Counted from the first letter of the stretch, positions 7,826-39,624 are shown. The stretch is 64,000 nucleotides of DNA from an uncultured Lachnospiraceae bacterium (GCA_964503455.1 CAZCZR010000001.1:25234-89233), one strand, 5' to 3'. The notes: generated by a model from the sequence alone, not told the origin. Made by a program: numbers and translations.

Positions 7826-7828
7826 TTG

Positions 7829-7857: not shown

Positions 7858-7902
7858 GAGAAAGATAAAAATTTCACCGATAAAATTTTTTAAGAGGAAA
7901 TG

Positions 7903-7931: not shown

Positions 7932-7997
7932 GATATATATTATAATTTATATGGAATACTTTTGCATGAAAACGCGGCTTGGGAGGGGAGTGTCTGA

Positions 7998-17026: not shown

Positions 17027-17071
17027 AACTGTTCCTCCTCTGCCTTTTATTGTATTATATGCGATATGTGA

Positions 17072-17590: not shown

Positions 17591-17667
17591 AAATAGCGCA
17601 GCAGCAATAAAACTACTACGCTATAACCGTTTTGTATTGCACATATTTGTGCGGGTTTATACTTATA

Positions 17668-18363
17668 TCATAATATCCTTCCGTCAGTGGAAACCGTCAC
17701 GGTCTTACAGTCTATCGCTTTGCCGCTTTCCTGCAGCGCTTTTTTAACGGCGAGTTCAATTCCTCCGCAGCATGGCACCTCCATGCGCACCACTGTCACA
17801 GAGGCAATGTCGTTAACGCGCAGAAGCTCGGCAAGCTTGACCGAATAATCGGTGCTGTCAAGCTTGGGACAGCCTATCAGGGTTATCTTGTCTTTGATAA
17901 AACGGTCATGGAAGTCCCCGTAAGCATACGCTGTGCAGTCAGCCGCTATAAGCAGGTGCGCCCCGTCAAAATACGGCGCATTTACCGGAGCAAGCTTTAT
18001 CTGTACCGGCCACTGAGAAAGACGGCTCGCCGCCGGAGCCGCCGGCATATCGGGTTCCGCCGTGTGTGCAATGAAATGTGCTGCGCTTCCGGGGCATCCC
18101 GAGAACGCTTTCACAGGTTCGCTTTTCGCTGCCTTGTTTCTTAATGCTGCTGCTTCGTCATATGCCGCCGCCTCGCGTTTTTCAAAGCTTATGGCTCCCT
18201 CGGGACAACCCGGCAGGCAATCGCCCAGACCGTCGCAGTAATCATCGCGCAAAAGCTTCGCCTTGCCGTTTACTATGCCTATCGCGCCCTCATGGCAGGC
18301 TGTGACACATATGCCGCATCCTGTGCATTTTTCCTCATCTATTTTTATAATCTGTCTTAGCAT
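17668..18363 (-). CDS. 4Fe-4S dicluster domain protein with a Cys-rich C-terminal domain
   Basis: N-terminal CTGCGICVTACHEG and CDGLGDCLPGCPEG ferredoxin motifs. The C-terminal domain has LIGCPKLD and VPCCGG motifs. Divergent from a Crp/Fnr regulator. Confidence 0.8.
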   Translation of the reverse strand: MLRQIIKIDEEKCTGCGICVTACHEGAIGIVNGKAKLLRDDYCDGLGDCLPGCPEGAISFEKREAAAYDEAAALRNKAAKSEPVKAFSGCPGSAAHFIAHTAEPDMPAAPAASRLSQWPVQIKLAPVNAPYFDGAHLLIAADCTAYAYGDFHDRFIKDKITLIGCPKLDSTDYSVKLAELLRVNDIASVTVVRMEVPCCGGIELAVKKALQESGKAIDCKTVTVSTDGRIL

Positions 18364-18419
18364 TGTCTGATCCTCCTATTGACTTTTTTATTTGCAGGCG
18401 TAAAATTTCATATAATCTA

Positions 18420-18448
18420 TTGACTTTACGTGTATATTATATTATAAT
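18420..18448 (+). promoter_or_regulatory. Sigma-A type promoter upstream of the Crp/Fnr gene (TTGACT-17-TATAAT)
   Basis: TTGACT 18420-18425, 17-nt spacer, TATAAT 18443-18448, ~45 nt upstream of ATG 18495. Confidence 0.45.
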
Positions 18449-18494
18449 AATTATGTAAAGTCTGTTGTATTTACAACGAAAAGAGGAAGCTTGG

Positions 18495-19163
18495 ATGGAA
18501 AATAATTCGGATATATATTATAGTATCCCATTGTTTGCAGGACTTGGTGAGCATGAGATCTCCGCACTTTTCACTGCTTTGCCTCCAAAACGAAGGTCAT
18601 ACCGCGCGGGGGATACGGTGTTTTGGGACGGTTGTGCGGCGGAGTATGTCGGAATAGTGCTTGACGGAACCGTGCATATTGTTAAAGAAGATTTCTTCGG
18701 CAACAGAAATATTGTCGCTGCGATCGATAAGGGCGGCATTTTCGCGGAAGCCTTTGTTTGTGCAAAATCAAAGACTCTTCCCGTAAGTGTGTTTGCCGCA
18801 TCGGACTGTGATATACTGCTGATAGACTATAAGAGCATACTCGATCCGACACGTTCCGATGTGCCGTGCCGTGATTTGCTCATATTGAATATGCTCAGGA
18901 TAATGGCGGAAAGGAATATCATGCTAAGCGGCAAGATAGAGCTTACGGCAAGGCGCACCACACGCGAAAAGCTTACGGCATATCTTTCATCACAGGCAAA
19001 ACGCGCAGGGGACGCCGAGTTCGAAATACCCTTCAACCGTCAGGAGCTTGCGGATTATCTGTCTGTGGACAGAAGCGCCATGTCGGCCGAGCTGGGGCGT
19101 ATGCGCCGCGACGGCTTAATTGAATTCAGAAAAAACCGCTTCAGAATCAACCCGATACCCTGA
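18495..19163 (+). CDS. Crp/Fnr family transcriptional regulator
   Basis: cNMP-binding beta-barrel (YRAGDTVFWDG...VGIVLDGTVHIVKEDFFGNRNI) and C-terminal HTH (RQELADYLSVDRSAMSAELGRMRRDGLI). RBS AGAGGA precedes ATG 18495. Confidence 0.9.
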   Translation: MENNSDIYYSIPLFAGLGEHEISALFTALPPKRRSYRAGDTVFWDGCAAEYVGIVLDGTVHIVKEDFFGNRNIVAAIDKGGIFAEAFVCAKSKTLPVSVFAASDCDILLIDYKSILDPTRSDVPCRDLLILNMLRIMAERNIMLSGKIELTARRTTREKLTAYLSSQAKRAGDAEFEIPFNRQELADYLSVDRSAMSAELGRMRRDGLIEFRKNRFRINPIP

Positions 19164-19208
19164 CATTTTAAATTATAGAGAAAATAATATATACAAGAGA
19201 GGTATAAA

Positions 19209-19913
19209 ATGGCACTGTATGCTATCGCCGATCTGCACCTGCCCATAGGCGTGAATAAACCGATGGATATTTTCGGCTGCGCATGGCATAATTACGTGGA
19301 AAGGCTTGAAACAAACTGGAAGAACACAATCTCGGATGATGACACAGTAGTGCTTGCGGGGGATTTTTCATGGGCGACTTATATACGGGACGCTTATAAG
19401 GATTTTGATTTTATAAACCGCCTTCCCGGAAAAAAATATCTTGTCAAGGGCAACCATGATTACTGGTGGACTACCATGAATAAAATGCGGGGGTTTGTTG
19501 CGGAAAACGGTTTTGACACTATAAATTTTTTACAGAATAACTGCTTTATGTATAACAGTACGGCAGTATGCGCCACACGCGGCTGGCGGCATCCCGGCTG
19601 TGATGCTTTTACGGCGGAGGACAGAAAGATTTTCAACCGCGAGGTCATCCGTTTGCGCCTTGCTCTTGACGCTGCTTTAAAACAATCACCTTCGGATATT
19701 ATCGTGTTCACTCACTACCCGCCGACAGACAGTATGGGATGCAGGAACGACTTCACCGAGGTATTGTCGGACTTTGGAGTGTCGAAATGTGTGTACGGTC
19801 ATCTTCATTCGGCAAGCCATAAAAAAGCCGTACAGGGCATTTTCGGCGGCGTAGAATACATACTTGTATCAGCTGATTATGTGGAGTTTATGCCCGTTAA
19901 AATTTTGGATTAG
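19209..19913 (+). CDS. Metallophosphoesterase (calcineurin-like phosphoesterase family)
   Basis: YAIADLHL, LAGDFSW, KGNHDYWW and GHLH motifs match the metallophosphoesterase signature D-x-H / GD / GNH(D/E) / GH. Confidence 0.85.
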   Translation: MALYAIADLHLPIGVNKPMDIFGCAWHNYVERLETNWKNTISDDDTVVLAGDFSWATYIRDAYKDFDFINRLPGKKYLVKGNHDYWWTTMNKMRGFVAENGFDTINFLQNNCFMYNSTAVCATRGWRHPGCDAFTAEDRKIFNREVIRLRLALDAALKQSPSDIIVFTHYPPTDSMGCRNDFTEVLSDFGVSKCVYGHLHSASHKKAVQGIFGGVEYILVSADYVEFMPVKILD

Positions 19914-19923
19914 GAGAATTGCC

Positions 19924-20433
19924 ATGAAACTGCTTATAGCTTCCGACATACACGGTTCTTATTATTATGCGGACAAGCTTTGCCGCCTTTACAAAAGCTC
20001 AGGCGCGGACAGACTGATTCTTTTAGGTGATTTGCTCTATCACGGGCCGCGCAACGATCTGCCGAGGGACTATGCGCCCAAAAAGGTCATACCGCTTTTA
20101 AACGCGCTTAAAAATGAGATAATCTGTGTTCGCGGCAACTGTGATACCGAGGTGGATCAAATGGTTTTAGAATTTCCTATTATGGCGGAATACGCCGTTA
20201 TATTTGACAGCGGAAAGACCATATGGCTCACCCACGGACACAAGCCTTTTATGAGTGTTAAAGAAGGTGATATAATTTTAAGCGGTCACACGCATATACC
20301 CCTTGACGAGATGCGCGGCGGCGTGCGCTTTATCAACCCCGGCTCTGTTGCGATCCCGAAAAACGGCAGCGCTCACAGCTGTATCATATACGAGGACGGT
20401 GAGTTCGTCTTTACCGGGCTTGATAAGCAGTGA
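19924..20433 (+). CDS. yfcE: YfcE / MJ0936-family phosphodiesterase
   Basis: MKLLIASDIHGS, LGDLLYHGPRN, RGNCD and SGHTH motifs. ATG at 19924, 11 nt after the preceding stop. Confidence 0.85.
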   Translation: MKLLIASDIHGSYYYADKLCRLYKSSGADRLILLGDLLYHGPRNDLPRDYAPKKVIPLLNALKNEIICVRGNCDTEVDQMVLEFPIMAEYAVIFDSGKTIWLTHGHKPFMSVKEGDIILSGHTHIPLDEMRGGVRFINPGSVAIPKNGSAHSCIIYEDGEFVFTGLDKQ

Positions 20434-20546
20434 GGCGGAACGGTATAATTTAAGCAGAGCCGGCAAACACTTAAAATTCTGATATGATACAATATATAAA
20501 AATAAACAAAATATCCGGTAGCATTAAGATTCTAACGCATTAATGA

Positions 20547-20575
20547 TTGACATATTTATCTGCGGGTGGTATAAT
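20547..20575 (+). promoter_or_regulatory. Perfect-consensus sigma-A promoter (TTGACA-17-TATAAT) with no adjacent ORF
   Basis: TTGACA 20547-20552, 17-nt spacer, TATAAT 20570-20575. The nearest downstream start codon with an RBS is 320 nt away (20896). Confidence 0.55.
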
Positions 20576-20737
20576 ATCAGTGGATGTTTATTGCTCTTTG
20601 ACGGAAATTTCGCTGCTGTTACGGACACGGTAGCATCAAGATGACAATTGATATATTCCGAATATCATAGCTTTTTCAGTATATGAATTGAATTTATTAA
20701 AATAAAAATCAGCAAAAGTAAAATTGGGCAAGAGGCA

Positions 20738-20789
20738 GGCATCCGGTTTTGACCGCATATCCCAAAAACGGTGCGGATAAGCCATTTTT
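20738..20789 (+). terminator. Terminator-like imperfect hairpin followed by a T-run
   Basis: GGCATCCG...CGGAT(AA)GCC outer stem. Alternative inner pairings are possible (CCGGTTTTG/CAAAAACGG, or CCGCA/TGCGG). Followed by ATTTTT. It lies between the two consensus promoters. Confidence 0.35.
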
Positions 20790-20828
20790 CAAAGATTGGA
20801 AGATTTAAGATCTTAAATTAAAAAAACA

Positions 20829-20857
20829 TTGACAAGTAAAATAAAATGATATATAAT
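20829..20857 (+). promoter_or_regulatory. Second perfect-consensus sigma-A promoter (TTGACA-17-TATAAT), proximal to the Lrp-family gene
   Basis: TTGACA 20829-20834, 17-nt spacer, TATAAT 20852-20857, ~40 nt upstream of ATG 20896 (RBS TAGGAG). Confidence 0.55.
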
Positions 20858-20895
20858 AAGAAGATGTAAAATAATGATGTTTAGGAGTTGCTGAC

Positions 20896-21378
20896 ATGGA
20901 AGAGATTTTAGCGTTGCTCGAAAAGAAAAATGCCAGAGTATCAAGAGCGCAGATAGCGCAGATGATGGGTATTTCTGCGGAAGAGGTCGAAAAAAAGATC
21001 GATGAACTTGAAAAGAAAAAAATTATTGTAGGATATAAAACTCTCGTTGATTGGGACAAAACCGACCGCGAGGTTGTCACGGCTCTTATTGAACTGCGCG
21101 TAACGCCGCAGAGAGGAGAAGGCTTTGATAAAATAGCCGAAAGGATATACAAGTATCCCCAGGTAAAAAGCGTATACCTTATGTCCGGAGCGTATGATCT
21201 CGGACTTACCATAGAGGGGAAGACCATGAAGGAAGTAGCCCTCTTTGTCGCTGAAAAGCTCGCGCCTATGGATTCGGTCATAAGCACGGCAACGCATTTT
21301 GTTCTGAAAAAATATAAAGAGGAAGGAATTGTATTCAACGACAGCGAAAAGGACACAAGACAGGTAATAACTCTATGA
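20896..21378 (+). CDS. Lrp/AsnC family transcriptional regulator
   Basis: N-terminal wHTH (ILALLEKKNARVSRAQIAQMMGISAEEVEKKIDELEKKKII) and C-terminal RAM/ACT-like domain. Overlaps the downstream aminotransferase by 4 nt. Confidence 0.9.
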   Translation: MEEILALLEKKNARVSRAQIAQMMGISAEEVEKKIDELEKKKIIVGYKTLVDWDKTDREVVTALIELRVTPQRGEGFDKIAERIYKYPQVKSVYLMSGAYDLGLTIEGKTMKEVALFVAEKLAPMDSVISTATHFVLKKYKEEGIVFNDSEKDTRQVITL

Positions 21379-22550
21379 AAGATTACAGCGAACTTTTATC
21401 GAAAGTGGTGCAGGGTATAGCACCGTCCGGCATAAGAAAATTTTTTGATATTGTAGCCGAAATGGACGATGCAATATCTCTCGGAGTAGGTGAGCCGGAT
21501 TTTATAACCCCGTGGACAATACGTGAGGCGGGTATATACTCTCTTGAAAAAGGTCAGACATATTATACCGCCAATGCCGGTCTTATGGAGCTGCGCCGCG
21601 AAATTTGCAATTATAATGAAAGAAAATACGGAATAAAGTACGATCCCAAAAGCGAGGTGCTTGTTACAGTCGGAGGTTCCGAGGCGATAGACCTTATGAT
21701 CCGCTGCGTTATCGAGCCGGGGGACGAGGTGCTTATTCCCGAGCCGTGCTTTGTCTGTTACAGACCGTGTACGGTTATAGCCGGCGGTGTTCCGGTTGGA
21801 ATAGAAACCAAGGAGGAAGATTCCTTTAGGCTTATGCCCGAGCAGCTTAAGGCGGCGATAACAGACAAGACAAAGCTGCTTATACTGCCATACCCGAACA
21901 ATCCCACCGGAGGCGTAATGTCAAAAGAGGATCTTGAGGCTGTTGCCGAGGTGCTTCGCGGCACGGATATACTGGTGCTTTCGGATGAGATATACAGCGA
22001 GCTTCGCTACGGCGAGGAAAAGCATACACCGTTTTCGGCAATAGAGGGCATGAGAGAGAGGACCGTTGTGGTAAACGGTTTTTCAAAGGCATTTGCCATG
22101 ACCGGATGGCGTTTGGGTTATGCTATGGGTCCGTCTCCCATAATAAAGGCTATGACAAAGGTGCATCAGTACGGTATAATGTCATCTCCGACAACGAGTC
22201 AGTATGCGGCTATAGAGGCGATGAAAAACTGCGACAATGATGTGGCGGAGATGGTGAATGAATATAACTACAGGCGCAGATATATCGTGGACGGTTTCCG
22301 CGATATGGGGCTGTCGTGCTTTGAGCCGCTGGGAGCTTTTTATGTGTTTCCGTCGATAAAATCGACCGGTATGACCAGCGATGAGTTCTGCCGCCGTCTG
22401 CTTGAGGAGGAAAAAGTCGCCGTAGTGCCGGGAACGGCGTTCGGCGAATCGGGTGAGGGCTTTATAAGATGTTCCTACGCCTATTCCATAGACAATATAC
22501 AGGAAGCGTTGAAGCGCATAAAGCGTTTTGTCGATAACCACAGGATTTAA
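21375..22550 (+). CDS. Pyridoxal-phosphate-dependent aminotransferase, class I/II
   Basis: LGVGEPDF, the PNNPTG motif and the Schiff-base lysine motif NGFSKAFAMTGWRLGY. Confidence 0.93.
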   Translation: MKDYSELLSKVVQGIAPSGIRKFFDIVAEMDDAISLGVGEPDFITPWTIREAGIYSLEKGQTYYTANAGLMELRREICNYNERKYGIKYDPKSEVLVTVGGSEAIDLMIRCVIEPGDEVLIPEPCFVCYRPCTVIAGGVPVGIETKEEDSFRLMPEQLKAAITDKTKLLILPYPNNPTGGVMSKEDLEAVAEVLRGTDILVLSDEIYSELRYGEEKHTPFSAIEGMRERTVVVNGFSKAFAMTGWRLGYAMGPSPIIKAMTKVHQYGIMSSPTTSQYAAIEAMKNCDNDVAEMVNEYNYRRRYIVDGFRDMGLSCFEPLGAFYVFPSIKSTGMTSDEFCRRLLEEEKVAVVPGTAFGESGEGFIRCSYAYSIDNIQEALKRIKRFVDNHRI

Positions 22551-24244: not shown

Positions 24245-25984
24245 GTGTATTACGGGAAATATATAAAGAAATATCTTCCATATTTTATAATGACGCCCAT
24301 ATGTATGACCGTAGAAGTTTTAGGCGATGTGTTTATGCCGAAATGTATATCGTGGATGGTTGACAAGGGCGTTGCAAACCATGATATAGGGTACATACTG
24401 TCCATAGGCGGACTTATGATCGTCTGTATAATTTTTATGATACTCGGCGGCGTGGGAGGACAATGGTTCGCGACTCACGCATCGGTGTCCTTTGCAACGG
24501 ATTTGAGGCTTGATGTGTATAAAAAAATACAGAGCTTCTCGTTTAAAAATATAGACAAGTTTTCAACAGGATCTCTTGTTACACGTCTGACTAACGATAT
24601 TACTCAAATGCAGAACGTGCTGAGAATGGTGCTTATCATGGCGCTTAGATCTCCGGGAATGTTGATAGGCGCGTTTATCATGGCGTGTACGCTGAATGTC
24701 AAGCTGGCGGTTATAATAGGCGTTATTATACCGTTTCTGGGCACAAGTATCGTTTTTATTATAAAAACGGCGTTCCCGCGCTTTGAGGTCCTGCAAAAAA
24801 AGCTTGACGCACTCAACTCACGCATACAGGAGAATATAACCAATATAAGGGTCATAAAATCCTTTGTGTGCGAGGAAAGGGAAGAGGAGCGCTTTGTAAC
24901 CAGCAATCACGATTTGAGGGATTCATCAATAAATGCGTTCAAAATAGTTATTCTGAATATGCCTGTCATGACGCTTGCCATGAATGTTGCGACAATAGCA
25001 GTCGTATGGTTCGGCGGTAATTTTGTTATAGCGGGGAATATGAAGATAGGAAATCTGACAGCGTTTACGACTTACATAACGCAGATACTCATGTCGCTGA
25101 TGATGATATCAAATATCTTTTTACAGACATCGAGAGCGAGCGCGTCCTCAAAGCGTATCAAAGAGGTGCTTCAAACGGAAGCCGACCTTGTTGACGATGA
25201 TGCGGCTGAAAAGGATAAAACGGTTGAAAAAGGCGATATTTCATTTGAAAATGTATGCTTTAAATACAGAGAGGATAACAAGGAGTACATCCTAAAAGAT
25301 ATAAACCTTGAGATAAAAAGCGGCGAAACGGTTGGAATTATCGGTTCCACCGGTTCGGGCAAGACCAGTCTTGTACAGCTCATACCGCGTCTTTACGACG
25401 CGACTGAAGGAGTTGTCAAGGTGGACGGCGTTGATGTGCGTGATTACTCACTGAAACATCTGCGCACCGGAGTGGGAATGGTGCTTCAAAAAAATGTGCT
25501 GTTTTCGGGTACTGTTGCACAAAATCTTCACTGGGGAGATGAGAACGCAAGTCCGGAGGAGCTTAGGGCTGCCGCCGCCGCCGCTCAAGCGGACGGATTC
25601 ATCTCGGAATTTGACGGCGGGTATGACAGTTATATAGATCAGGGCGGCGCGAACGTATCGGGCGGTCAGAAGCAGAGACTTTGTATAGCGAGAGCGCTTT
25701 TGAAAAAACCGAAGATACTGATACTCGATGATTCGACCTCTGCTGTTGATACGGCAACGGAAGCGAAGATACGACATACGTTCAAAACCACGCTTCGTGA
25801 CGCGACAAAGATAATTATAGCTCAAAGAATATCCTCAATAGAGGACGCCGACAAGATCATAGTCTTAAAGGACGGCATGATCAGTGCTGTCGGAACGCAC
25901 TCCGAGCTTATACGCTCCAACGAGGAATATAAAGAGATATACTATTCCCAGAAAGAAAAGGAGGATGATAAAAATGCCTCCTAG
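24245..25984 (+). CDS. ABC exporter subunit (fused TMD-NBD), degenerate-site half of a heterodimer
   Basis: Six TM helices, then Walker A GSTGSGKTS, signature VSGGQKQR and Walker B ILILDDSTS, with D replacing the catalytic E. GTG start 14 nt after the pyrG stop. Confidence 0.93.
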   Translation: MYYGKYIKKYLPYFIMTPICMTVEVLGDVFMPKCISWMVDKGVANHDIGYILSIGGLMIVCIIFMILGGVGGQWFATHASVSFATDLRLDVYKKIQSFSFKNIDKFSTGSLVTRLTNDITQMQNVLRMVLIMALRSPGMLIGAFIMACTLNVKLAVIIGVIIPFLGTSIVFIIKTAFPRFEVLQKKLDALNSRIQENITNIRVIKSFVCEEREEERFVTSNHDLRDSSINAFKIVILNMPVMTLAMNVATIAVVWFGGNFVIAGNMKIGNLTAFTTYITQILMSLMMISNIFLQTSRASASSKRIKEVLQTEADLVDDDAAEKDKTVEKGDISFENVCFKYREDNKEYILKDINLEIKSGETVGIIGSTGSGKTSLVQLIPRLYDATEGVVKVDGVDVRDYSLKHLRTGVGMVLQKNVLFSGTVAQNLHWGDENASPEELRAAAAAAQADGFISEFDGGYDSYIDQGGANVSGGQKQRLCIARALLKKPKILILDDSTSAVDTATEAKIRHTFKTTLRDATKIIIAQRISSIEDADKIIVLKDGMISAVGTHSELIRSNEEYKEIYYSQKEKEDDKNAS

Positions 25985-27803
25985 GATAGATATGGGACGC
26001 AAAGGTCCCGGCGGGCCGGGCGCCAGAGGCGCGAAGCCTAAGGAAAAGCCTAAAAATACAGTCGGCACCGTAAAACGGCTGCTTGGATATATCACGGGCT
26101 ATAAAAAGCATCTTACGGTGGCTGTGATATGCGTGTGCGCGAATACGGCTTCGACGCTTACTGCGTCTTATATGCTGCGTCCGCTTATAAACAAGTTCAT
26201 AGACCCGACAACGACGGGCGGCCGCGGCGATCCTGCGGGACTTGCAAAAGGACTTGCGGTTATGGCGCTGGTTTACCTTGTGGGACTTGTAGCAACATAC
26301 ACACAGTCGCGCATAATGATAAGCCTTTCGCAGGGAGTGCTTGCCACTATAAGAAACGATTTGTTTTCAAAGCTTGAGCGTCTGCCTGTTAGGTACTTTG
26401 ATCAGAATAATACCGGCGATATAATGAGCCGTTTTACCAACGATGTTGACACCGTGGGCGAGATGCTCAATAACACACTGCTTGGAATATTTTCCGGCGC
26501 GATAACTCTTGTGGGTACGCTTGTCCTGATGATAAAGATGAATATCTGGCTGACGATTGTAACAGTGGTTATGATACCGGTGTTTGCAAAGGCCGCAGGC
26601 TGGATAGCGGGAAGGTCGAGGAAATTTTTCACAGCGCAGCAGGCGGCTCTCGGCGAGGTGAACAGCTATATTGAGGAGTCTGTCACAGGGAGCAAGGTCG
26701 TAAAGGTGTTCTGCCGCGAGGACAAGTCGGTGGAGGAATTTGCCGAAAGAAACAGTAAGCTTAAGGAAAACCAGATGAAGGCGCAGTTTGCGGGCGGCAT
26801 TACGGGACCTGTCATGGGAAACCTGTCACAGCTTAATTATGCGCTTACCGGATGTGTCGGATGTATACTGTGTCTTATGGGCAGATTTGACGTTGGCGGA
26901 CTTACGGTGTTCGTAAACTTTTCAAGACAGTTCTCGCGCCCGATAAACGAGCTTTCCATGCAGCTGACAACGATAATGTCGGCGCTTGCGGGAGCCGAGA
27001 GAGTATTCGCGGTGATGGATACGGAGCCTGAGGGAGCTGACAGCGAAGATGCTGTGGAAATAGAACATATCAAGGGCGATGTAAGGCTTGACAATGTTAC
27101 CTTTGGCTACGATCCGGGCAGGACGATACTTAAAAACGTGACTATCTGGGCGAAACCCGGTCAGAAGATAGCGCTTGTAGGCTCCACCGGCGCCGGAAAG
27201 ACAACGATAACCAATCTTATAACAAGATTTTATGAAATAGACGAGGGTACAATCACGATAGACGGCGTGGATATAAAGAAGCTGAAGAAAAAATTTCTGC
27301 GCGAAAATATCGCGGTGGTGCTTCAGGACACTCATCTGTTCACGGGTACGGTAATGGAGAATATACGTTATTCCCGTCCCGATGCTACGGATGAAGAGGT
27401 GCGCATGGCGGCGATGACCTCCTGTGCGCATATGTTCATAAAGCATCTTCCCGACGGCTATGACACCATGCTTGAGGGCGACGGTGCGAACCTGTCGCAG
27501 GGACAGCGTCAGCTATTGAATATTGCCCGCGCGGCTCTTTCAAAGGCGCCCGTACTTATTCTGGACGAGGCGACAAGCTCCGTTGATACCAAAACTGAAA
27601 TGCAGATAAACAAGGCGATGGACGCGCTGATGGAGTCGCGCACTACATTCGTTATTGCCCACCGCCTGTCCACAATACGGAATGCCGATGCTATCATGGT
27701 GCTGGAAAACGGCGAGATAATAGAACGCGGCACCCACAGACAGCTTCTGGATATGAAGGGAAGATATTACGAGCTTTCCTCAGGATTGAAGGAATTGGAC
27801 TGA
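25974..27803 (+). CDS. ABC exporter subunit (fused TMD-NBD), consensus-site half of a heterodimer
   Basis: Basic Gly/Pro-rich N-terminal tail, six TM helices, Walker A GSTGAGKTT, signature LSQGQRQ, Walker B VLILDEATS with the canonical E. RBS AAAGGAGG precedes ATG 25974, and the gene overlaps the upstream subunit. Confidence 0.93.
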   Translation: MPPRIDMGRKGPGGPGARGAKPKEKPKNTVGTVKRLLGYITGYKKHLTVAVICVCANTASTLTASYMLRPLINKFIDPTTTGGRGDPAGLAKGLAVMALVYLVGLVATYTQSRIMISLSQGVLATIRNDLFSKLERLPVRYFDQNNTGDIMSRFTNDVDTVGEMLNNTLLGIFSGAITLVGTLVLMIKMNIWLTIVTVVMIPVFAKAAGWIAGRSRKFFTAQQAALGEVNSYIEESVTGSKVVKVFCREDKSVEEFAERNSKLKENQMKAQFAGGITGPVMGNLSQLNYALTGCVGCILCLMGRFDVGGLTVFVNFSRQFSRPINELSMQLTTIMSALAGAERVFAVMDTEPEGADSEDAVEIEHIKGDVRLDNVTFGYDPGRTILKNVTIWAKPGQKIALVGSTGAGKTTITNLITRFYEIDEGTITIDGVDIKKLKKKFLRENIAVVLQDTHLFTGTVMENIRYSRPDATDEEVRMAAMTSCAHMFIKHLPDGYDTMLEGDGANLSQGQRQLLNIARAALSKAPVLILDEATSSVDTKTEMQINKAMDALMESRTTFVIAHRLSTIRNADAIMVLENGEIIERGTHRQLLDMKGRYYELSSGLKELD

Positions 27804-27827
27804 TATGATATGAAAGGAGTGCAGTAG

Positions 27828-29966
27828 TTGAGTAAAATACAGCAGCTGATATACACCTCCGTAAAAAGCTCTTTATCCGATGTGGAAAAGGGACTTATAA
27901 ATCAAGCCGGCTTTCGGGTATACTCATGCTCGGAGGGGCTTGAAAAGGAGGACATCGCAGAGATAGTTAAGTATACAAGCTATCGTTTGCCGCGCGGCTG
28001 CAGCACCGGCTATTCGATGAAGGTCTTTGACCCGTCGGTGCCGGAGCTGTTTCCGAAAACCTTCCGCGCTTTCACTCTGCCGAACGGGCGCAGCGTGGCA
28101 ATGCAGAGCGTTTATTCGGGCTATGATTTTGAGGGAAATCCCGGAAACTTCTTTGCCCACGCCTTCATATTCGATGATGAAAGCGTAAATCCGGCTGAAT
28201 ATTTCGGATCGCCGGATTTCAAAACATATCTCACCGAAGCCGAGTATGACAAGCCGATAGTTACATATCTGCCGGAGCTTGACGAGGTGAAAAAGCAGGA
28301 GGATTTGTGGGAAAAGGTTGACGCTTTTGTCGATAAGCATACGGAAGAATTTATGTATGTGTTTGCCCACGCGATGGCAGTTCTTGAAAGCATGACGAAA
28401 AAGCATCTCAATCTTGTGTGTTCCACGCAGGAGGAAAGCGAGCTTTATCTGCTTGCCATAAAGCGGTATCTGCCGCCGACGATTAAAGAGGGAACAGGTG
28501 TTTCCACATATAATATATTCCTTCCGTCAGAGAAGCAGACCGCGATAACCTTTAACGCTACGGTTAAAGGAATGAATAATATCACCGAAAAATCCTTGGC
28601 GTCGCATCCGTACTGTGAGCAGATAGACATGGAATCGACCGATTTTTCGCACAGCATTATCCCTCCGGTTTTCGATATACCAAAAGAGAAGCTTTTCGAG
28701 TATTACGGAAAGTACAATATCACGAGCGTGATGCAGCTGAAAACATGGCTTAAGACATTTGAGCCTGCCGGCGGAGGCGTTACGGCGAAGCTTGACGCGC
28801 TGAAAAATATCTGCGGCGACGAGATGTACAAGGAAAGAGTCGAGGAGCTTTACAATGCGGACGCTAAGGAGGATATAAGCGGTATATATTTCGAGCTTAT
28901 ATCGAGTATGTTTGCCAATATCACGCTTTTCCCCGACAAAGAAAACGAGATTATAAAGGATTATCTTATTTGCGGCATTGAAAATATATGCATGGGTGAG
29001 GACTGCAATCTCGAAAATGTGTACAAGCAGATAGCAACTCCGCAGGAAGCGGCAAAGACAACGATCGGATATCTTTCGGCGATAATGGATATAATATCTG
29101 TCAACTATGACACGCTGACGGATAAAAAGGCACTCCTGATTTTAAGACTGTTGGCAGTCATAAAACAAATGGCAAATATCGGAAGCTGGAAAGAGATGTT
29201 TTCGGACAACAGGGAGTATATGTCTCTCTTTGTTGAGATGACAGCTAATTCAGTCATCGGTACCAAGGGCAAGCTGAGTCTTACCGCGCCTGTTATATGG
29301 ACGAAGGAAGAGTTTGCCGAGGCTGTAGCGTATATACTGTCCTCCACCTCCGATGAAAGGATCATCGCGCTTTGCGAAAAGTATATCAGCGACAACCGCT
29401 CGATAGACTGGGACAGCTTTGGTGTAAAGATAACGGAGCGCGAAAAGTCAGACGAAGAAAAGCTTGACGATTTAAGGAGCGTAAAGTACCTTCTTTCAAA
29501 GGTGGGTTACGTACCGTACAGCGGAGGCTCATACTCCGATATTAAGAAGGAAGTCATAACTGATATGACGGACAATAAAAATCCGCTTCTTCTGTCAAGA
29601 CTGTTGTGGGCGTATTATGAATGGGCAAGCTGCGGAGGCAGACCGCAGGAAGCGCAGAAAGAAGCTGAAAAAGTCAGAGAGCTTTTGTGCATTATGCGCG
29701 AGACCGAGCCGGGATGCTATAACTTTATCATACCGAAGCTTGCGCTGGAGATACTTAACACATACAGTCATTTTCACGAGCTAATGATAAACACAGACAC
29801 CATGCCGCCATCTTTCTGGGAATGGTTTCTGATCGGATATAAAAACGCAGAAGGCAATATAGATATAAGAACGGTATATCAGCGGGTATACACTTCCAAC
29901 AAAAGCAAGATGCTGAGGATACCGGCAAGAAGCAGATTGAGAAAAGAATTTCGTAATATCGAATAG
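27828..29966 (+). CDS. Uncharacterised 712-aa cytoplasmic protein; N-terminal ~115 aa resemble a GAP1-N2 domain, remainder looks helical
   Basis: TTG start with RBS AAAGGAGTG, 24 nt after the ABC gene. N-terminus MSKIQQLIYTS...GLINQAGFRVYSCSEGL...YSGYDFEGNPGNFFAHAFIF. No TM helix, P-loop or other classical motif is recognisable. Confidence 0.8.
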   Translation: MSKIQQLIYTSVKSSLSDVEKGLINQAGFRVYSCSEGLEKEDIAEIVKYTSYRLPRGCSTGYSMKVFDPSVPELFPKTFRAFTLPNGRSVAMQSVYSGYDFEGNPGNFFAHAFIFDDESVNPAEYFGSPDFKTYLTEAEYDKPIVTYLPELDEVKKQEDLWEKVDAFVDKHTEEFMYVFAHAMAVLESMTKKHLNLVCSTQEESELYLLAIKRYLPPTIKEGTGVSTYNIFLPSEKQTAITFNATVKGMNNITEKSLASHPYCEQIDMESTDFSHSIIPPVFDIPKEKLFEYYGKYNITSVMQLKTWLKTFEPAGGGVTAKLDALKNICGDEMYKERVEELYNADAKEDISGIYFELISSMFANITLFPDKENEIIKDYLICGIENICMGEDCNLENVYKQIATPQEAAKTTIGYLSAIMDIISVNYDTLTDKKALLILRLLAVIKQMANIGSWKEMFSDNREYMSLFVEMTANSVIGTKGKLSLTAPVIWTKEEFAEAVAYILSSTSDERIIALCEKYISDNRSIDWDSFGVKITEREKSDEEKLDDLRSVKYLLSKVGYVPYSGGSYSDIKKEVITDMTDNKNPLLLSRLLWAYYEWASCGGRPQEAQKEAEKVRELLCIMRETEPGCYNFIIPKLALEILNTYSHFHELMINTDTMPPSFWEWFLIGYKNAEGNIDIRTVYQRVYTSNKSKMLRIPARSRLRKEFRNIE

Positions 29967-29984
29967 AAAATAAGGAGTGAGACC

Positions 29985-30884
29985 ATGAATAAACTGATAA
30001 GAAAAGCGGCGGCAGTGTTGGCAATGTGTACTATTATAGCCGCTAACGCCGTTGTATTTACCTCAAGCGTGTCAGCCGCGCCGACAACGATCACAATAAA
30101 CGGAGCCACATCAAAGCCGACAGCCTCTGCAAAACCCGACTCTACCTCAAGTCCGACAGCATCGGCAAAGCCGGGGTCCACATCAAAGCCGACAGCCTCT
30201 GCAAAACCCGACTCTACTTCAAAGCCCTCATCGGGCAGCGAAGATTCTGAGTCAACGGATGAGCCGGAGGAAACCTCGGCTCCCATACAGACGATAGCTC
30301 CGGCAGCTACACAGCAGCCGGAAAAAGCCGGATTTTTTGGAACAAAAGTGTCACGCGGCGGCCTTTTCGGCTGGAGCATATTCATTATTATAGTAAACGC
30401 GCTGCTGAGTTTCATGATCGCAAACCGTTTCTACAGGCTTTCAAAGAAGGATAACCGTATACAAGCTGAGATAAGAGCGCTCAGACGTGACATAGATGAA
30501 AAAATGGTGGCGGGTATTCCTCCGTTTTCTGAAAAAGCGACGGGCATATCAGATACCAACCCGGATTATTCAAGAGGCACAAAGTCAATAAAGGTAACTC
30601 TTGACGATGACAGAATACCTGACGAAGCGCGCGATATACTGGCAAAGTGGGGAGCGCAGATAGCGGCATCTGAACAGCCGGAGCAGTCCGAGCAGCAGGA
30701 CAGTCCTGCTTTGCGTGACAGGGATATCACCCGTGAGATGCGAATATCAAGAAACGCTTCGCGCACACAAAACAGAAAGCGCCCCGCAAAAGATGACGCT
30801 GACGATGAACCCGCATCTCAGGCAGGCGGAGCAAAGAAAAAGCTGAAAGATTTGATAGACGATATTTTCCCGTTCGGCGAATAA
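29985..30884 (+). CDS. Single-pass membrane protein with signal peptide, Lys/Pro/Thr/Ser tandem repeats and a disordered charged cytoplasmic tail
   Basis: RBS AAGGAGTG, 18 nt after the upstream stop. Signal-like N-terminus ending VSAAP, then (KPTASAKPDSTS)-type repeats. TM helix LFGWSIFIIIVNALLSFMIANRF, followed by a ~150-aa charged low-complexity tail ending DDIFPFGE. Confidence 0.75.
   Translation: MNKLIRKAAAVLAMCTIIAANAVVFTSSVSAAPTTITINGATSKPTASAKPDSTSSPTASAKPGSTSKPTASAKPDSTSKPSSGSEDSESTDEPEETSAPIQTIAPAATQQPEKAGFFGTKVSRGGLFGWSIFIIIVNALLSFMIANRFYRLSKKDNRIQAEIRALRRDIDEKMVAGIPPFSEKATGISDTNPDYSRGTKSIKVTLDDDRIPDEARDILAKWGAQIAASEQPEQSEQQDSPALRDRDITREMRISRNASRTQNRKRPAKDDADDEPASQAGGAKKKLKDLIDDIFPFGE
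30108..30228 (+). repeat. In-frame tandem repeat, 36-nt unit (72-nt super-unit), about 3.3 copies
   Basis: ACATCAAAGCCGACAGCCTCTGCAAAACCCGACTCTAC occurs identically at 30108 and 30180. The intervening 36 nt form a diverged copy. It encodes the TSKPTASAKPDSTS repeats. Confidence 0.8.
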
Positions 30885-31068: not shown

Positions 31069-32124
31069 ATGAATTATGAACGTTCCTGCGGCGCAGTGGT
31101 ATACAGGACAGAGAACGGAAAAAGGCAATATCTTGTGATATTCAATAAAAAAGGCAGTGCCGAAGGACATTGGGGATTTCCAAAGGGACACGTTGAGCCG
31201 GGCGAAAGTGACCTTGACACGGCAAAGCGCGAGATAAAGGAGGAAACAGGTCTTTCGGTGAGGTTTGAGCCGTTTTTCAAACGTGTGTCGCACTACTCTC
31301 CGAGACCTGAAACAGAAAAAGACAGCGTATATTTTGCAGCGCGCGCTCTTGACGGAGAGGTTACGATACAGCAGTCGGAGCTTGCCGGGTATGAATGGCT
31401 TGAAGCAGAGGATGCTTTTCGCCGCATAACTTACAAGGCGGACGCCCATATACTTGAAGCAGCGGATAAATTTCTTGATAAAATGGAAAGGATAACAACG
31501 GTAATTTTCGACATGGACGGCGTTATCACCGACAGCGAAATTGTTCATTACCGTTCGCTGTTAAAGGTTCTTGCTGAGTACGGCAAGGCAATCGACTATG
31601 ACAGCTATGCGCGTTTCGTGGGTTCCACAAACGAATATATGTGGAATACAATAATCGCCGAACAGTCTCTTGACGCGGATGCGGAGGAACTTACAAAAAA
31701 GTCTTTTTCGTATACCGATGAGGAGATCGCACAAAACGGTCATCCGCCGGTAAAGGGCGCGGCGGAGCTTATAAAAGAGCTTTTTAAAAGAGGCTACACG
31801 CTTGCCGTGGCATCCTCGTCACCGATGACATCTATAGAGAAAGTTACGGAATATTTTGGTGTACGCAGCTGCTTTGAAAAGCTTGTGACCGGCGAGGATG
31901 TAAAAAATCCCAAGCCCGCGCCCGATGTGTTTTTAAAGGCAGCTTTGCAGCTTGACAAAAAGCCGGAGGAATGTCTGGTTATAGAGGACTCCGAAAACGG
32001 CGTAAACGCCGCTGTCGCAGCCGGAATGATGTGCATCGGGCTTATCAATCCAAGCTCCGGCAGACAAGATCTGTCAAATGCGGATTATAAGGTCGGCGTA
32101 GGTTTTTATATGAGTGATCTTTAA
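31069..32124 (+). CDS. Nudix hydrolase fused to a HAD-superfamily phosphatase (beta-phosphoglucomutase-like subfamily)
   Basis: N-terminal Nudix box GHWGFPKGHVEPGESDLDTAKREIKEETGL. The C-terminal half carries HAD motif I VIFDMDGVITDSE, motif II LAVASSS and motif IV LVIEDSENGVNAAVAAGM. Confidence 0.88.
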   Translation: MNYERSCGAVVYRTENGKRQYLVIFNKKGSAEGHWGFPKGHVEPGESDLDTAKREIKEETGLSVRFEPFFKRVSHYSPRPETEKDSVYFAARALDGEVTIQQSELAGYEWLEAEDAFRRITYKADAHILEAADKFLDKMERITTVIFDMDGVITDSEIVHYRSLLKVLAEYGKAIDYDSYARFVGSTNEYMWNTIIAEQSLDADAEELTKKSFSYTDEEIAQNGHPPVKGAAELIKELFKRGYTLAVASSSPMTSIEKVTEYFGVRSCFEKLVTGEDVKNPKPAPDVFLKAALQLDKKPEECLVIEDSENGVNAAVAAGMMCIGLINPSSGRQDLSNADYKVGVGFYMSDL

Positions 32125-32144
32125 ATATGAAAGGAAGTTTAGAA

Positions 32145-33215
32145 ATGACAAAAATAGATATTATATCGGGTTTTCTCGGTGCGGGCAAGACTACACTTAT
32201 AAAGAAACTGCTTGAAGAAGCGCTTAAAGGAGAAAAGGTGGTGCTTCTTGAAAACGAATTTGGCGAGATTGGTATAGACGGCGGCTTTATGAAAGACTCC
32301 GGCATTGAAATAACGGAAATGAATTCCGGCTGCATATGCTGTTCGCTCGTAGGCGATTTCGAAACCGCATTGGGTGAGCTTTTGCACAAGTTCTCTCCCG
32401 ACAGGATCATCATTGAGCCTTCCGGAGTAGGAAAGCTGTCGGATATAGTAAAAGCCGTTGAGAACGCCGGCGCGGCAAACGGAGGTATTATAATCAATTC
32501 AAAGACCGCCGTTGCGGACGCGTCAAAGTGTAAAATGTACATGACAAACTTCGGCGAGTTTTACAACGATCAAATAGAAGCGGCGGACTCGGTGATTTTG
32601 AGCAGAACGGGCAGCATAAATGAAGATAAGCTTGACAAATGCGTTGAGATGATACGTACTCATAATGCTGACGCGCCTATTGTGACAACTCCGTGGGAGG
32701 AGATCAGCGGAGTTAAACTGCTTGAGGTAATGGAGGGCGCTGCGCCTTCTCTTGAAATAGAACTGCGTGAGGAGCATGAACATCACCACGGGCATCACCA
32801 TGAGCATGAACATGAACATGAGCATGAACACGAACATGAACATGAACACGAGCATCATCACGAGCATGAGCATGACGAGGACTGTACCTGCGGCTGCCAT
32901 GATCATCATGACCACGAGCATCATCAGCATCATCACGCGGATGATATATTTACGAGCGTAGGCATAGAAACTCACAGAAAGTTCACCGAAAACGGTATAA
33001 ACGATATACTTTCCAAATTGTCGGACAGCGAAAAATACGGTATGGTGCTTCGTGCAAAGGGTATCATTCCCGCTTCCGAGGGGGAGTGGATACACTTCGA
33101 TTATGTGCCGGGCGAAACGGATATTCGCAGGGGAAGCGCGGACTATACAGGCAGACTGTGCATTATAGGAACAAAGCTTAACGAAGCCGCTTTAAAGGAG
33201 CTGTTTACAAAATGA
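32145..33215 (+). CDS. COG0523 (CobW/ZigA/YciC-like) metallochaperone GTPase with a His/Glu/Cys-rich insert
   Basis: P-loop GFLGAGKTT, metal-binding GCICCS (CxCC), IIEPSGVG, a ~56-aa His-rich insert and a CobW_C-like end. RBS AAAGGAAG precedes ATG 32145; the ORF track start 32127 is also possible. Confidence 0.9.
   Translation: MTKIDIISGFLGAGKTTLIKKLLEEALKGEKVVLLENEFGEIGIDGGFMKDSGIEITEMNSGCICCSLVGDFETALGELLHKFSPDRIIIEPSGVGKLSDIVKAVENAGAANGGIIINSKTAVADASKCKMYMTNFGEFYNDQIEAADSVILSRTGSINEDKLDKCVEMIRTHNADAPIVTTPWEEISGVKLLEVMEGAAPSLEIELREEHEHHHGHHHEHEHEHEHEHEHEHEHEHHHEHEHDEDCTCGCHDHHDHEHHQHHHADDIFTSVGIETHRKFTENGINDILSKLSDSEKYGMVLRAKGIIPASEGEWIHFDYVPGETDIRRGSADYTGRLCIIGTKLNEAALKELFTK
32769..32937 (+). 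repeat. Coding (CAY-GAR)n microsatellite-like tract encoding the His/Glu-rich stretch
   Basis: EEHEHHHGHHHEHEHEHEHEHEHEHEHEHHHEHEHDEDCTCGCHDHHDHEHHQHHH is encoded by near-perfect catgaa/catgag/cacgag hexamer iterations. Confidence 0.9.
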
Positions 33216-34174
33216 ATGTCATGAGAACAGAGGTCCCCATATATATGGTCACCGGCTTTCTTGAAAGCGGAAAGACAACCTTTATAAAGGAAGTCATAGA
33301 CGAGGGTAATTTCAACACTGATTCGGGCCCTGTGCTTGTGATCGTCACCGAGGAAGGCGAAGAAGAGTACGATAAGGATTTCTGTGAGGAAAACAAGGTA
33401 GTCGCGGCAAATGTTTCAAGCCTTGAAGAGCTTCAGGGCGGTATGCTGACGCGCCTAAACCGTGAGCATCATCCGGCGGCAGTCGTTATAGAGTATAACG
33501 GAATGTGGGATCCGGAGGAGCTTTTCAAAAGCAGAAAACCGAAGAGCTGGCATCTTGTGGAAATGATTTCCCTGCTTGATGCCACGACGTACAATATGTA
33601 TATGGCGAATATGCGGTCTATAATAACACGGTTTATCAATATAACCGATCTTACCGTTATAAACCGCTGCCCCGATGGGATGGACAAAATGTCAGTGAGA
33701 AGGGTGCTTCGCGCGGTGAATCCGCGTATGCAGATAGTGTTCGAGAATCTTGACGGCACCACCGATGACGGAAGGGGCGACGGTGAGCTTCCATATGATC
33801 TTGACTCGGATCTAATCGAGGTTGCCGAAGAGGATTATGGCATTTTCTACGTAGAAACCATGGACAATCCCGAAAGATATGACGGTAAGCGCGTAAAGAT
33901 AAGCGGTACGGGACTTAAGAACTCAAAAATGCCGAGAGGCAAATTTGTACTTGCAAGACCTGCTATGACCTGCTGCGCCGATGATGTGGCTTTGGCGGGA
34001 TTTTTGTGCGTGTACAAAGACGCGGAAAAAGTGCGTCATAAGGACTGGATAAGCGTGACCGCCAAGCTTAAATTCGAGTACAGCGACATAATGGAAACTG
34101 ACGGCATAGTGTTTTATGTCGAAAAGACAGAACCCGCCAAAAAGCCTGAGGATGATATGGTCTACTTCAATTGA
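33212..34174 (+). CDS. COG0523-like P-loop domain lacking CxCC, fused to a DUF1980/TIGR03943-like C-terminal domain with a CC..D motif
   Basis: P-loop GFLESGKTT and VIEYNGMWDP (Walker B-like), but no CxCC. The C-terminal segment GKRVKISG...FVLARPAMTCCADDVALAGF...DWISVTAKL resembles the CCxxD metal-associated domain. Overlaps the upstream gene by 4 nt. Confidence 0.8.
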   Translation: MNVMRTEVPIYMVTGFLESGKTTFIKEVIDEGNFNTDSGPVLVIVTEEGEEEYDKDFCEENKVVAANVSSLEELQGGMLTRLNREHHPAAVVIEYNGMWDPEELFKSRKPKSWHLVEMISLLDATTYNMYMANMRSIITRFINITDLTVINRCPDGMDKMSVRRVLRAVNPRMQIVFENLDGTTDDGRGDGELPYDLDSDLIEVAEEDYGIFYVETMDNPERYDGKRVKISGTGLKNSKMPRGKFVLARPAMTCCADDVALAGFLCVYKDAEKVRHKDWISVTAKLKFEYSDIMETDGIVFYVEKTEPAKKPEDDMVYFN

Positions 34175-34194
34175 CCCGCAAAAAGGAACACAGT

Positions 34195-34680
34195 ATGAAG
34201 CTTATAGTAAATGTAAATAAAAACTGGGGAATAGGCGCAAACGGAGATCTGCTGTGCCATATACCGGAGGATATGAAGTTCTTTCGGGAAACTACAAAAA
34301 ACTCTGTTGTTATAATGGGCAGAAAAACTCTTGATTCTTTCCCCGGCGGGAAGCCTCTTAAAAACAGAACAAATATTGTTCTTACGCGAAATGAGAATTT
34401 TTCAAGAGATGGCGTTGAAGTGTATCCGGATAAGGAAAGCGTTCTTAGGCGCGTAGCGGACGAGGACAACGTGTTTGTCATAGGCGGCGGCGAAATATAC
34501 AGGATGTTTTTAGACGACTGCGATACCGCATATGTCACAAAGACGGATGATACGCGTTCGGCGGACATATATTTCCCTGACCTTGACAGCGAGGACGGCT
34601 GGAGGTGCGTATATACCTCCGAGGAAAAGTATTCTTGCGGAATGAGATTCGTTTTTACTACTTATAAAAAAATGAAATAA
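34195..34680 (+). CDS. folA: Dihydrofolate reductase
   Basis: MKLIVNVNKNWGIGANGDLLCHIPEDMKFFRETT...VIMGRKTLDS...NIVLTR...VFVIGGGEIY is the classical DHFR pattern. Confidence 0.93.
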   Translation: MKLIVNVNKNWGIGANGDLLCHIPEDMKFFRETTKNSVVIMGRKTLDSFPGGKPLKNRTNIVLTRNENFSRDGVEVYPDKESVLRRVADEDNVFVIGGGEIYRMFLDDCDTAYVTKTDDTRSADIYFPDLDSEDGWRCVYTSEEKYSCGMRFVFTTYKKMK

Positions 34681-39441: not shown

Positions 39442-39624
39442 AAAGACAGGACGTAATATTTTTGTAAAATTTATCGTTTCCGTATTTATATGCCGGAAAA
39501 CATAGAGCAGTATCACGCGCCTGCCGTGTATTGCCGACTTAAATTACAATCGAGGACGTTCTGAGTTCCGCCGGGAACCTGCTTGCGGCGGAAAGACTTA
39601 ATTCATAGTCAGGAGGTTAAAACC

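Follow-up and report, generated by a model that had tools for sequence, protein, structure and literature searches.

A GAP1-like protein without a GTPase neighbor and its single-pass membrane partner form a conserved gene pair in gut Clostridia

What might a GAP1-like protein do when no GTPase is encoded beside it? The question was raised by a 64,000-nt stretch of DNA from an uncultured Lachnospiraceae bacterium (GCA_964503455.1 CAZCZR010000001.1:25234-89233), here called the window, in which a gene for a 712-residue, predicted cytoplasmic GAP1-like protein (27828..29966, + strand) is followed by a gene for a 299-residue membrane protein, the partner (29985..30884, + strand). GAP1 proteins adjoin, or are fused with, co-evolving DO-GTPases (Kaur, Burroughs, Iyer & Aravind 2020, eLife; PMC7159879). 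The module described here is a GTPase-less variant of this already known, little-studied family and is not categorically new.

Both open reading frames (ORFs), their spacings, and the ribosome-binding site (RBS) and TTG start of the first were all present as the initial annotation of this DNA had described them. The GAP1-like gene starts with TTG, 8 nt downstream of an RBS read in the sequence as GAAAGGAG (27812..27819, + strand), and stops with TAG at 29964-29966; the stop codon of the preceding ABC transporter gene (27801-27803) lies 24 nt upstream of the TTG. After a further 18 nt, the partner gene starts with ATG, 7 nt downstream of its RBS, read as AAGGAG (29972..29977, + strand). The TTG start is credible because the N-termini of homologues line up with its position (consensus MKVYQLIYTS); the start codons of the homologues are ATG in 69, GTG in 6, and TTG in 3.

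The resemblance of the 712-residue protein to GAP1-N2, proposed previously, held when tested with profile hidden Markov models. The Pfam GAP1-N2 model (PF20013) matched residues 4-150 with E=2.2e-19 and 70.3 bits, against a cut-off of 24, and every listed homologue of the protein also has PF20013. No other Pfam, NCBIfam, PADLOC, or PDB-sequence match was found for the protein, the PDB sequences giving none below E=0.1. Alignment of the family with canonical proteins carrying N2 and M domains, using hhalign, extended the homology to residues 2-247 (probability 100%, E=1e-41) and revealed none past residue 247. The Pfam GAP1-M model (PF20014) does match the canonical relatives but not the window protein, in which the profile-profile alignment and the predicted alpha/beta fold nonetheless indicate a GAP1-M domain following the N2 domain, as in canonical GAP1. 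A GAP1-C domain was not found by profile comparison, the sole method applied to it, and the GAP1-C models did not match even the canonical proteins.

An exhaustive profile search over 1.84 billion representatives separated the family from its canonical relatives. Approximately 8 full-length representatives of the ~710-residue family scored above 690 bits, and after a steep fall in score came proteins of 840-900 residues at no more than 117 bits. The latter are canonical GAP1 proteins carrying GAP1-N2 and GAP1-M, and they align mostly to query positions 1-~230 and rarely to ~480. Since the canonical homology ends at residue 247, the protein consists of a GAP1 N2+M core and a C-terminal region of ~460 residues that is specific to the family and unrelated to canonical GAP1. 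At ~710 residues, the GAP1-like proteins also differ in length from canonical GAP1 (~840-900 residues).

The AlphaFold2 (AF2) model of the protein, built from a 51-sequence alignment, had a mean predicted local distance difference test (pLDDT) score of 90.5 and fell into three parts. The GAP1-N2 domain (residues 1-150; 27828..28277), delimited by Pfam, AF2 secondary structure, and hhalign to canonical GAP1, is predicted to be alpha+beta with the topology b1-b2-a1-b3-b4-b5-a2-a3. The second domain (residues ~160-270; 28305..28637), by hhalign and AF2 a cryptic equivalent of GAP1-M, is predicted to be alpha/beta. Residues 280-712 (28665..29963) form a family-specific region, predicted from AF2, profile comparison, and Foldseek to be an all-alpha, solenoid-like structure, in which W454, W491, W528, W599, W664, and W666 are invariant. 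The earlier description of the last ~600 residues as all-helical is therefore true of residues 280-712 and fails for residues 160-270.

The protein had been considered an orphan, and this it is not. A word-index search gave 131 relatives, of which the 120 listed are 703-743 residues long and 37-67% identical to the window protein, and a search of GTDB, with each species represented by a single genome, gave orthologues in at least 118 genomes. All carriers belong to one clade of gut and rumen Clostridia (Ca. Ornithomonoglobus, Hominilimicola, "Lachnospiraceae bacterium MD329", and similar); most are metagenome-assembled genomes (MAGs), and some, among them Lachnospiraceae bacterium MD329 and Hominilimicola, were deposited as non-MAG isolates or cultured species. 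The sequences identify the family as clade-wide and vertically inherited. The gene is usually single copy and of constant length across related loci. In MAG RGIG379 (JAFODX01), two GAP1-like/partner pairs lie on different contigs (L046 and L081); the copy in L081 has diverged further (35% identity), its partner ends IFSAED in place of FPF, and either a paralogue or strain mixing is possible.

A search for the GTPase was made in the window and in 86 related loci, covering part of the at least 118 species genomes, that were compared with it by tblastn. A scan for P-loops found no TRAFAC-type protein in the 64-kb window, whose P-loop proteins are the ABC nucleotide-binding domains (NBDs), two CobW-type proteins, and a thymidylate kinase, the last recognized by its P-loop motif only. 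None was consistently present within +/-8-10 kb in the 86 loci. When two DO-GTPases from a control locus were used as tblastn queries, no match at E<=1e-3 was obtained in the window or the 86 loci. The control, L088, is the one locus obtained from a metagenome scan with a narrower canonical alignment. Over positions 1-12416, it encodes an HSP70 fragment, an HSP70-vWA fusion, a 1028-residue double-zinc-ribbon protein, DO-GTPase2, GAP1 (N2+M), and a 675-residue DO-GTPase, an order that agrees with the published "HSP70 theme" of GAP1-N2 systems. The P-loop scan picked up both of its GTPases, one on each side of GAP1. The absence of an adjacent DO-GTPase, noted earlier for the window, thus held for the 86 loci as well; the accompanying expectation of a GASH-type partner did not suit N2-type systems, whose third component is an FNIII-repeat protein (PMC7159879). 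Themes based on tubulin, HSP70, or kinases also accompany these systems (PMC7159879), whereas no tubulin (other than FtsZ), HSP70, vWA, or kinase was found among the larger window ORFs scanned.

The loss of the GTPase neighbor is paralleled by a change in the N2 domain. Canonical GAP1 proteins have a DYSGRxGN loop in which Tyr and Arg are present in 37/37 sequences. Its counterpart in the window protein, from column counts in the alignment, is D100-N107 (DFEGNPGN; 28125..28148), with F101 and N104 standing at the Tyr and Arg positions. Among 51 members of the GAP1-like family, the Arg position is occupied by E in 25, N and Q in 6 each, D in 5, H in 4, and R in only 2, and the Tyr position varies among F, I, Y, and W. 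The GAP1-N2 signature quoted in the initial annotation was thus present in its motifs, but its "GR.GN" element reads GNPGN, and the Arg has been lost family-wide. Most other residues invariant in the canonical N2 and M domains are kept, including the QLxYTS and GN..H motifs, and K77 and R80 are invariant in the GAP1-like family only. Because the GTPase neighbor and the Arg were lost in parallel, the comparison suggests, by analogy with the Arg fingers of longin-type GTPase-activating proteins, that the canonical Arg would serve interaction with the GTPase.

Following the pair in the window, and considered as the missing GTPases but rejected, is a tandem of CobW/COG0523-type genes (32127-33215 and 33212-34174), joined with a third ORF (34171-34680) by 4-nt overlaps. 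A long His/Glu-rich HEHEHE tract is present in the first CobW-type protein, the C-terminal portion of the second matches TIGR03943 ("putative permease subunit"), and the third ORF encodes 169 residues that are DHFR-like by sequence reading alone. CobW/COG0523 proteins are of the G3E class and not TRAFAC-type like DO-GTPases, and the pair of genes (32127-34174) is absent from the other loci. An EutP/PduV-like protein of ~160 residues, recognized by its P-loop motif, is encoded a few kb 3' of the pair in one subgroup of loci, L009, L010, L011, L017, L018, L023, L029, and L068 (~12.9-16.4 kb), and a RarA/MgsA-like gene, similarly recognized by the motif GPPGVGKTT, directly follows the partner gene in ~20 loci (~10.9-12.3 kb). 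Neither is consistently linked to the pair.

If the protein has no GTPase beside it, what it does have is the partner. As previously noted, this protein has a signal-peptide-like N-terminus, a repeat-bearing ectodomain, one transmembrane (TM) helix (~128-150), and a long tail ending DDIFPFGE, all of which were found in the sequence. The N-terminal segment (residues 1-31, ending VSA/AP; 29985..30077) is of a kind kept in 75 partner homologues, in which K/R-rich residues are followed by hydrophobic ones. It is followed by a 36-nt tandem repeat of 3.3 copies (30108..30226; Tandem Repeats Finder score 161, 74% matches) that encodes 12-residue SKPTASAKPDST units. The ectodomain is hypervariable and of low complexity, with a top-residue fraction of 0.12-0.27 per column, and no fold was predicted for it (pLDDT ~27). 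A type I topology with the K/R-rich side of the TM helix in the cytoplasm can be read from the sequence. A word-index search gave 22 relatives of the partner, all of 245-299 residues. No Pfam domain, FN3 included, was found in the partner family, nor was there an NCBIfam match for the partner, and PADLOC gave only a chance-level match (E=0.38). A variable, repeat-bearing TM partner and a predicted location near the membrane are shared with canonical GAP1 systems (PMC7159879), but the window partner is not an FNIII-repeat protein.

Conservation in the partner, taken from an alignment of 75 sequences, is concentrated at the membrane and in the predicted cytoplasmic tail. The TM and juxtamembrane helix (residues ~128-175, W130...NRFY...AEIRALRRDIDEKM; 30366..30509) is the most conserved part, with the pre-TM/TM/juxtamembrane block W130...NRFY...AEIRALRRDIDEK highly conserved throughout the homologues; E162, A165, L166, and D169 are 100% and R148, Y150, and R164 are 99% conserved. 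Smaller islands are found at F.E (181-183), N190/N192/Y195, G201/I202, and W222 (100%). The C-terminal motif, K.K(A)K..L.D(I/V)FPF followed by acidic residues (in the window, KKKLKDLIDDIFPFGE; 30834..30881), includes K286, K288, F295, P296, and F297, each conserved at 91% or more. The C-termini of 79 partners have FPF in 71, FP[LM] in 3, and [IL]PT in 3.

Co-occurrence of the two genes was checked across related loci, and nothing else in the locus is as well conserved as their pairing. A partner gene lies directly downstream in 82/82 of the loci with DNA at that position, with a median gap of 15 nt and some overlaps. Given that the partner is always present while the ABC genes upstream vary, it is the pair that constitutes the invariant unit.

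In the 76 loci having enough upstream DNA, the second ABC gene ends no more than 200 nt before the pair in 67, and most loci share an AsnC-aminotransferase-pyrG block farther upstream of the two ABC genes. There are exceptions. In L004, an HtrA-like gene and in L043 the aminotransferase gene lies directly upstream of the pair, with no ABC genes; L053 and L062 also have the pair without upstream ABC genes, and in L036 and L037 insertions of 5 kb and 0.9 kb separate the two. YebC follows the pair in both L003 and L004, though the upstream block of L004 is gone. The gene orders identify the ABC linkage as an ancient conserved synteny, and as dispensable, since the pair occurs in several loci that lack the ABC genes. 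The suggestion that the pair had been welded onto an ABC operon in a new genomic context was accordingly not borne out, the arrangement being old and not obligatory.

Within this block, the pair evolves markedly faster than its neighbors, yet its length is maintained and many of its residues are invariant. Measured against the window proteins, median identity is 74% for AsnC, 80% for the aminotransferase, 78% for PyrG, and 63% for the ABC subunits; the GAP1-like protein stands at 40% and the partner at 32%. A scan for promoters and terminators gave two perfect -35/-10 matches 5' of the AsnC gene and no terminator-like site on the + strand from the ABC genes to the partner stop codon. The single transcription unit proposed earlier is compatible with this result and with the gene spacing, which are no proof of it, and the pair is probably co-transcribed with the ABC genes.

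The two ABC genes encode half-transporters with Pfam ABC_membrane and ABC_tran domains. ABC1 (579 residues; 24245..25984, + strand) is overlapped by 20 nt by ABC2 (~612 residues from the ATG at 25965; 25965..27803, + strand), the homologues of which are 598-614 residues long. The Walker B motif of ABC1, ILILDD-S, lacks the catalytic Glu, making ABC1 the degenerate-site subunit; ABC2 has a canonical Walker B motif, LILDEAT. The LDD-S of ABC1 pairs with the degenerate ABC2 signature LSQGQ, and the ABC1 signature is VSGGQ. These motifs identify the upstream genes as encoding a heterodimeric ABC exporter with one degenerate ATP site, the class of type IV exporters exemplified by TM287/288, BmrCD, and LmrCD. 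We know of no accessory cytoplasmic scaffold or single-pass partner for this class. In NCBIfam, the window proteins are generic and MsbA-like, with no model or equivalog above its cut-off.

A possible mode of binding between the GAP1-like protein and its partner was seen when the 712- and 299-residue proteins were fused and modeled by AF2 as a single chain, with an alignment of GAP homologues only. Residues 533-539 (VKITERE; 29424..29444) of the GAP1-like protein are coil in the solo model and a strand in the fused model, which marks them as a predicted contact with the partner; W528, G532, and K540, which flank them, are invariant. A new strand was also formed by partner residues 200-206 (912-918 of the fusion), with a pLDDT of ~69 compared with ~30 in its flanks. 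As the two new strands are equal in length, they would most simply pair with each other. The partner strand and a following helix (215-229), together the predicted docking element (30582..30671), were delimited from the co-fold and conservation. The helix containing W222 had a pLDDT of ~55, and the FPF helix ~50. We regard the strand pairing as a testable hint of binding and not as evidence of it.

Taken with the features above, we tentatively favor a reading in which the pair is a clade-specific, vertically inherited two-protein membrane module, derived from the GAP1 component of a GAP1-N2/DO-GTPase conflict system, that works independently of a GTPase, is tethered to the membrane and, most speculatively, acts on the exporter. 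The GAP1 ancestor would have been domesticated and lost its GTPase dependence; its fixed position in the AsnC-aminotransferase-pyrG-ABC-ABC block in most of the 86 loci and the lack of a PADLOC match support domestication. The partner would serve as a membrane anchor whose conserved cytoplasmic elements (the juxtamembrane helix, the 200-206 strand and W222 helix, and the C-terminus with its basic-FPF-acidic motif) would bring the soluble GAP1-like protein to the cytoplasmic side of the membrane, while the ectodomain, variable and Ser/Thr/Pro/Lys-rich, would reach into the cell wall. Once assembled, the complex might act as a scaffold or regulator at the membrane that needs no nucleotide switch. 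The most speculative step would make the upstream heterodimeric exporter its target, for which the tight spacing to ABC2 (67/76 loci) and the replacement of FPF by [IL]PT in three ABC-less loci speak.

Several considerations weigh against this reading. In four loci the pair is found with no ABC genes next to it, and in two it lies apart from them, and the gene orders allow that inherited synteny alone could explain the adjacency. In the ABC-less L004, L053, and L062, the partners have F[IL]PTD[RK]K in place of FPF[DK][ED], but these loci form one subclade, and the association with ABC loss is probably a single evolutionary event, so that it only hints at an exporter link. The co-fold had no alignment for the partner portion, and its pLDDT reached only ~69 in the strand and ~50 in the FPF helix. 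The resemblance of the model to TagF and DENN-family proteins, described below, is weak (Foldseek E=0.02, TM-score 0.3-0.4). The GTPase search spanned ~20 kb per genome and 64 kb for the window, and a DO-GTPase encoded elsewhere is possible. Finally, the one paper on GAP1 systems that we found is computational (PMC7159879), and we found no experiment on any GAP1 protein.

One alternative retains the anchored, GAP1-derived scaffold but takes the ABC proximity as mere inherited gene order; the target would then belong to some other process of the envelope or cytoskeleton, for instance division or growth of the wall. The loci lacking ABC genes, the survival of downstream synteny at YebC when the upstream block is lost, and the generic character of the ABC proteins, in which no special features were detected, all fit this view. 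So does the association of canonical GAP1-N2 neighborhoods with tubulin (52%) and HSP70 (14%) (PMC7159879), and because the FPF helix is not confidently docked in the model, it may bind a third protein. Yet gaps of tens of nt after ABC2 in 67/76 loci are tighter than synteny needs, and no cytoskeletal gene is linked to the pair, the housekeeping FtsZ gene of the window (1938-3128) being 25 kb upstream. Mimicry of the FtsZ C-terminal peptide by the partner tail was considered and set aside: FtsZ ends NINVPSFFKPKN, which is only vaguely like DDIFPFGE and of opposite charge. On balance, we judge this alternative somewhat unlikely, though it is the most serious of those considered.

A second alternative is that the protein is a conventional GAP1 whose DO-GTPase and other components are encoded elsewhere in a split system. 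The retention of most N2 and M core residues is in its favor, and the limited extent of the DNA inspected per genome leaves room for it. Canonical GAP1 and GTPase, however, are adjacent or fused and co-evolve (PMC7159879), as they are adjacent in the control locus L088, whereas no DO-GTPase was encoded in the 87 sequences examined here; the invariant Arg and Tyr have been lost, and the C-terminal region is not that of canonical GAP1. We consider such a split system unlikely.

We hold it to be just as unlikely that the pair is a minimal two-gene conflict or surface-sensing system, with the ectodomain sensing phage or competitors at the wall and the GAP1-like protein passing on the signal or carrying out the response. 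Descent from predicted conflict systems (PMC7159879), the hypervariable, repeat-based ectodomain, and the rapid evolution of the pair (40% and 32% identity against 63% and 78-80% for the neighbors) are what such a system might show. Against this, no effector, enzyme, or pore domain was found in Pfam, NCBIfam, PADLOC, and Foldseek scans of the 712-residue protein, and the low-complexity ectodomain has no predicted fold. Defense genes are typically patchy and island-associated, whereas the pair occupies a fixed, housekeeping, vertically inherited position in most of the 86 loci, usually in single copy and at constant length, and not the variable context of canonical GAP1 systems.

It is very improbable that the 712-residue protein is an enzyme with C34, H111, and D100/N107 as a putative thiol-hydrolase-like triad, since, although every member of the GAP1-like family has C34, H111, and N107 and 98% have D100, C34 is not kept in canonical GAP1 (where Met is commonest, at 35%) and no enzyme family was matched by sequence or fold.

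With the full-length model as query, Foldseek found no strong fold match in the PDB. The top match was Acinetobacter baylyi TagF (9T0N; E=0.022, probability 0.97, TM-score by target 0.40), and P. aeruginosa TagF recurred among the matches along with DENND10, C9orf72 (twice), and a chain of the FLCN-FNIP2 complex; four DENN-family complexes were within the top 30 (8p0v_M, probability 0.87, then 7mge_C, 6lt0_C, and 6ulg_N). All of these matches are weak (E>=0.02, TM-score 0.16-0.40). The remaining matches were generic alpha-solenoids, as was also the case for the C-terminal region, and a viral fold library gave no meaningful match. No TagF or DENN sequence-profile match was found in Pfam, NCBIfam, or PDB sequences, and literature searches for work tying TagF to DENN or longin returned nothing relevant. 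A TagF/DENN-like two-domain fold is therefore a lead and not a result.

The TagF comparison extends to the organization of the system. TagF and TagZ form an accessory checkpoint of type VI secretion in A. baylyi (PDB 9T0N; bioRxiv 10.64898/2025.12.08.692957), in which TagF needs the single-pass TagZ, a protein whose cytosolic motif is conserved and whose periplasmic part is variable and dispensable (bioRxiv 10.64898/2025.12.08.692957). In the 712-residue model, as in TagF, an alpha+beta domain at the N-terminus precedes an alpha/beta domain, and the pair likewise combines a soluble protein with a single-pass partner with a short conserved cytosolic motif and a variable extracytoplasmic part without a fold. 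TagF, however, has no sequence similarity to the GAP1-like protein, matches it in Foldseek only at E=0.02, and lacks the 430-residue alpha-solenoid. TagZ is N-in with an N-terminal motif, whereas the window partner is predicted to be N-out, its C-terminal tail lying in the cytoplasm. Neither the window nor the related loci showed any type VI secretion genes, and we know of no description of such systems in Gram-positive bacteria. The likeness is thus an analogy of organization, not of membership.

Longin domains typically have the order b-b-a-b-b-b-a-a, which is that of the first domain of the model, and the DENN/longin regulators of GTPases (DENND10, C9orf72-SMCR8, FLCN-FNIP2) are recurring top fold matches. 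The canonical GAP1 family is likewise GTPase-associated, while the GAP1-like family has no GTPase partner at the loci examined. The DENN matches are individually weak (E=0.05-0.3, TM-score 0.16-0.33), have no sequence-level counterpart, and do not establish homology. An extension of the exporter reading, which we think quite improbable, would make the N2+M core a bacterial TagF/DENN-longin platform for NTPase dimers that has been re-targeted from a DO-GTPase dimer to the adjacent ABC NBD heterodimer and is kept at the membrane by the partner.

A two-gene variant without GTPase or effectors, carried by more than 100 gut species, offers a possible simple entry point to the binding and function of the GAP1 core, and it indicates that a "conflict-system" domain can become domesticated in a stable chromosomal context. 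Should the TagF/DENN resemblance prove true, bacterial GTPase-associated proteins would be joined to the eukaryotic DENN/longin regulators, and the lost canonical Arg would be suggested as a finger residue with a catalytic or regulatory role. Were the exporter link true, the pair would be a new kind of ABC accessory; with re-targeting to the NBDs, the protein would be the first DENN-like cytoplasmic factor to regulate an ABC transporter and would point to a root of the DENN module in prokaryotes.

When the larger window ORFs were scanned with Pfam and NCBIfam, housekeeping genes were identified, including those for FtsZ, AddAB, LigA, ThrRS, and TyrRS, among others. In a 351-residue ORF (31069-32124) directly 3' of the pair, the N-terminal part matched a MutT1-like 8-oxo-(d)GTP phosphatase model and the C-terminal part matched beta-phosphoglucomutase-like HAD hydrolase models; none of these matches reached its curated cut-off, and together they suggest a Nudix-HAD fusion. 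In L001, which lies on a 2.4-Mb contig, an island with integrase, Mob_Pre, transposase, and primase genes (15454-21948) is located a few kb 3' of the pair, with the pair outside it. Elsewhere in the window, AddB and AddA are encoded at 7998-15240, and the ORF at 39583-42567 encodes a 994-residue surface protein that has seven Listeria-Bacteroides repeats in addition to SLH domains.

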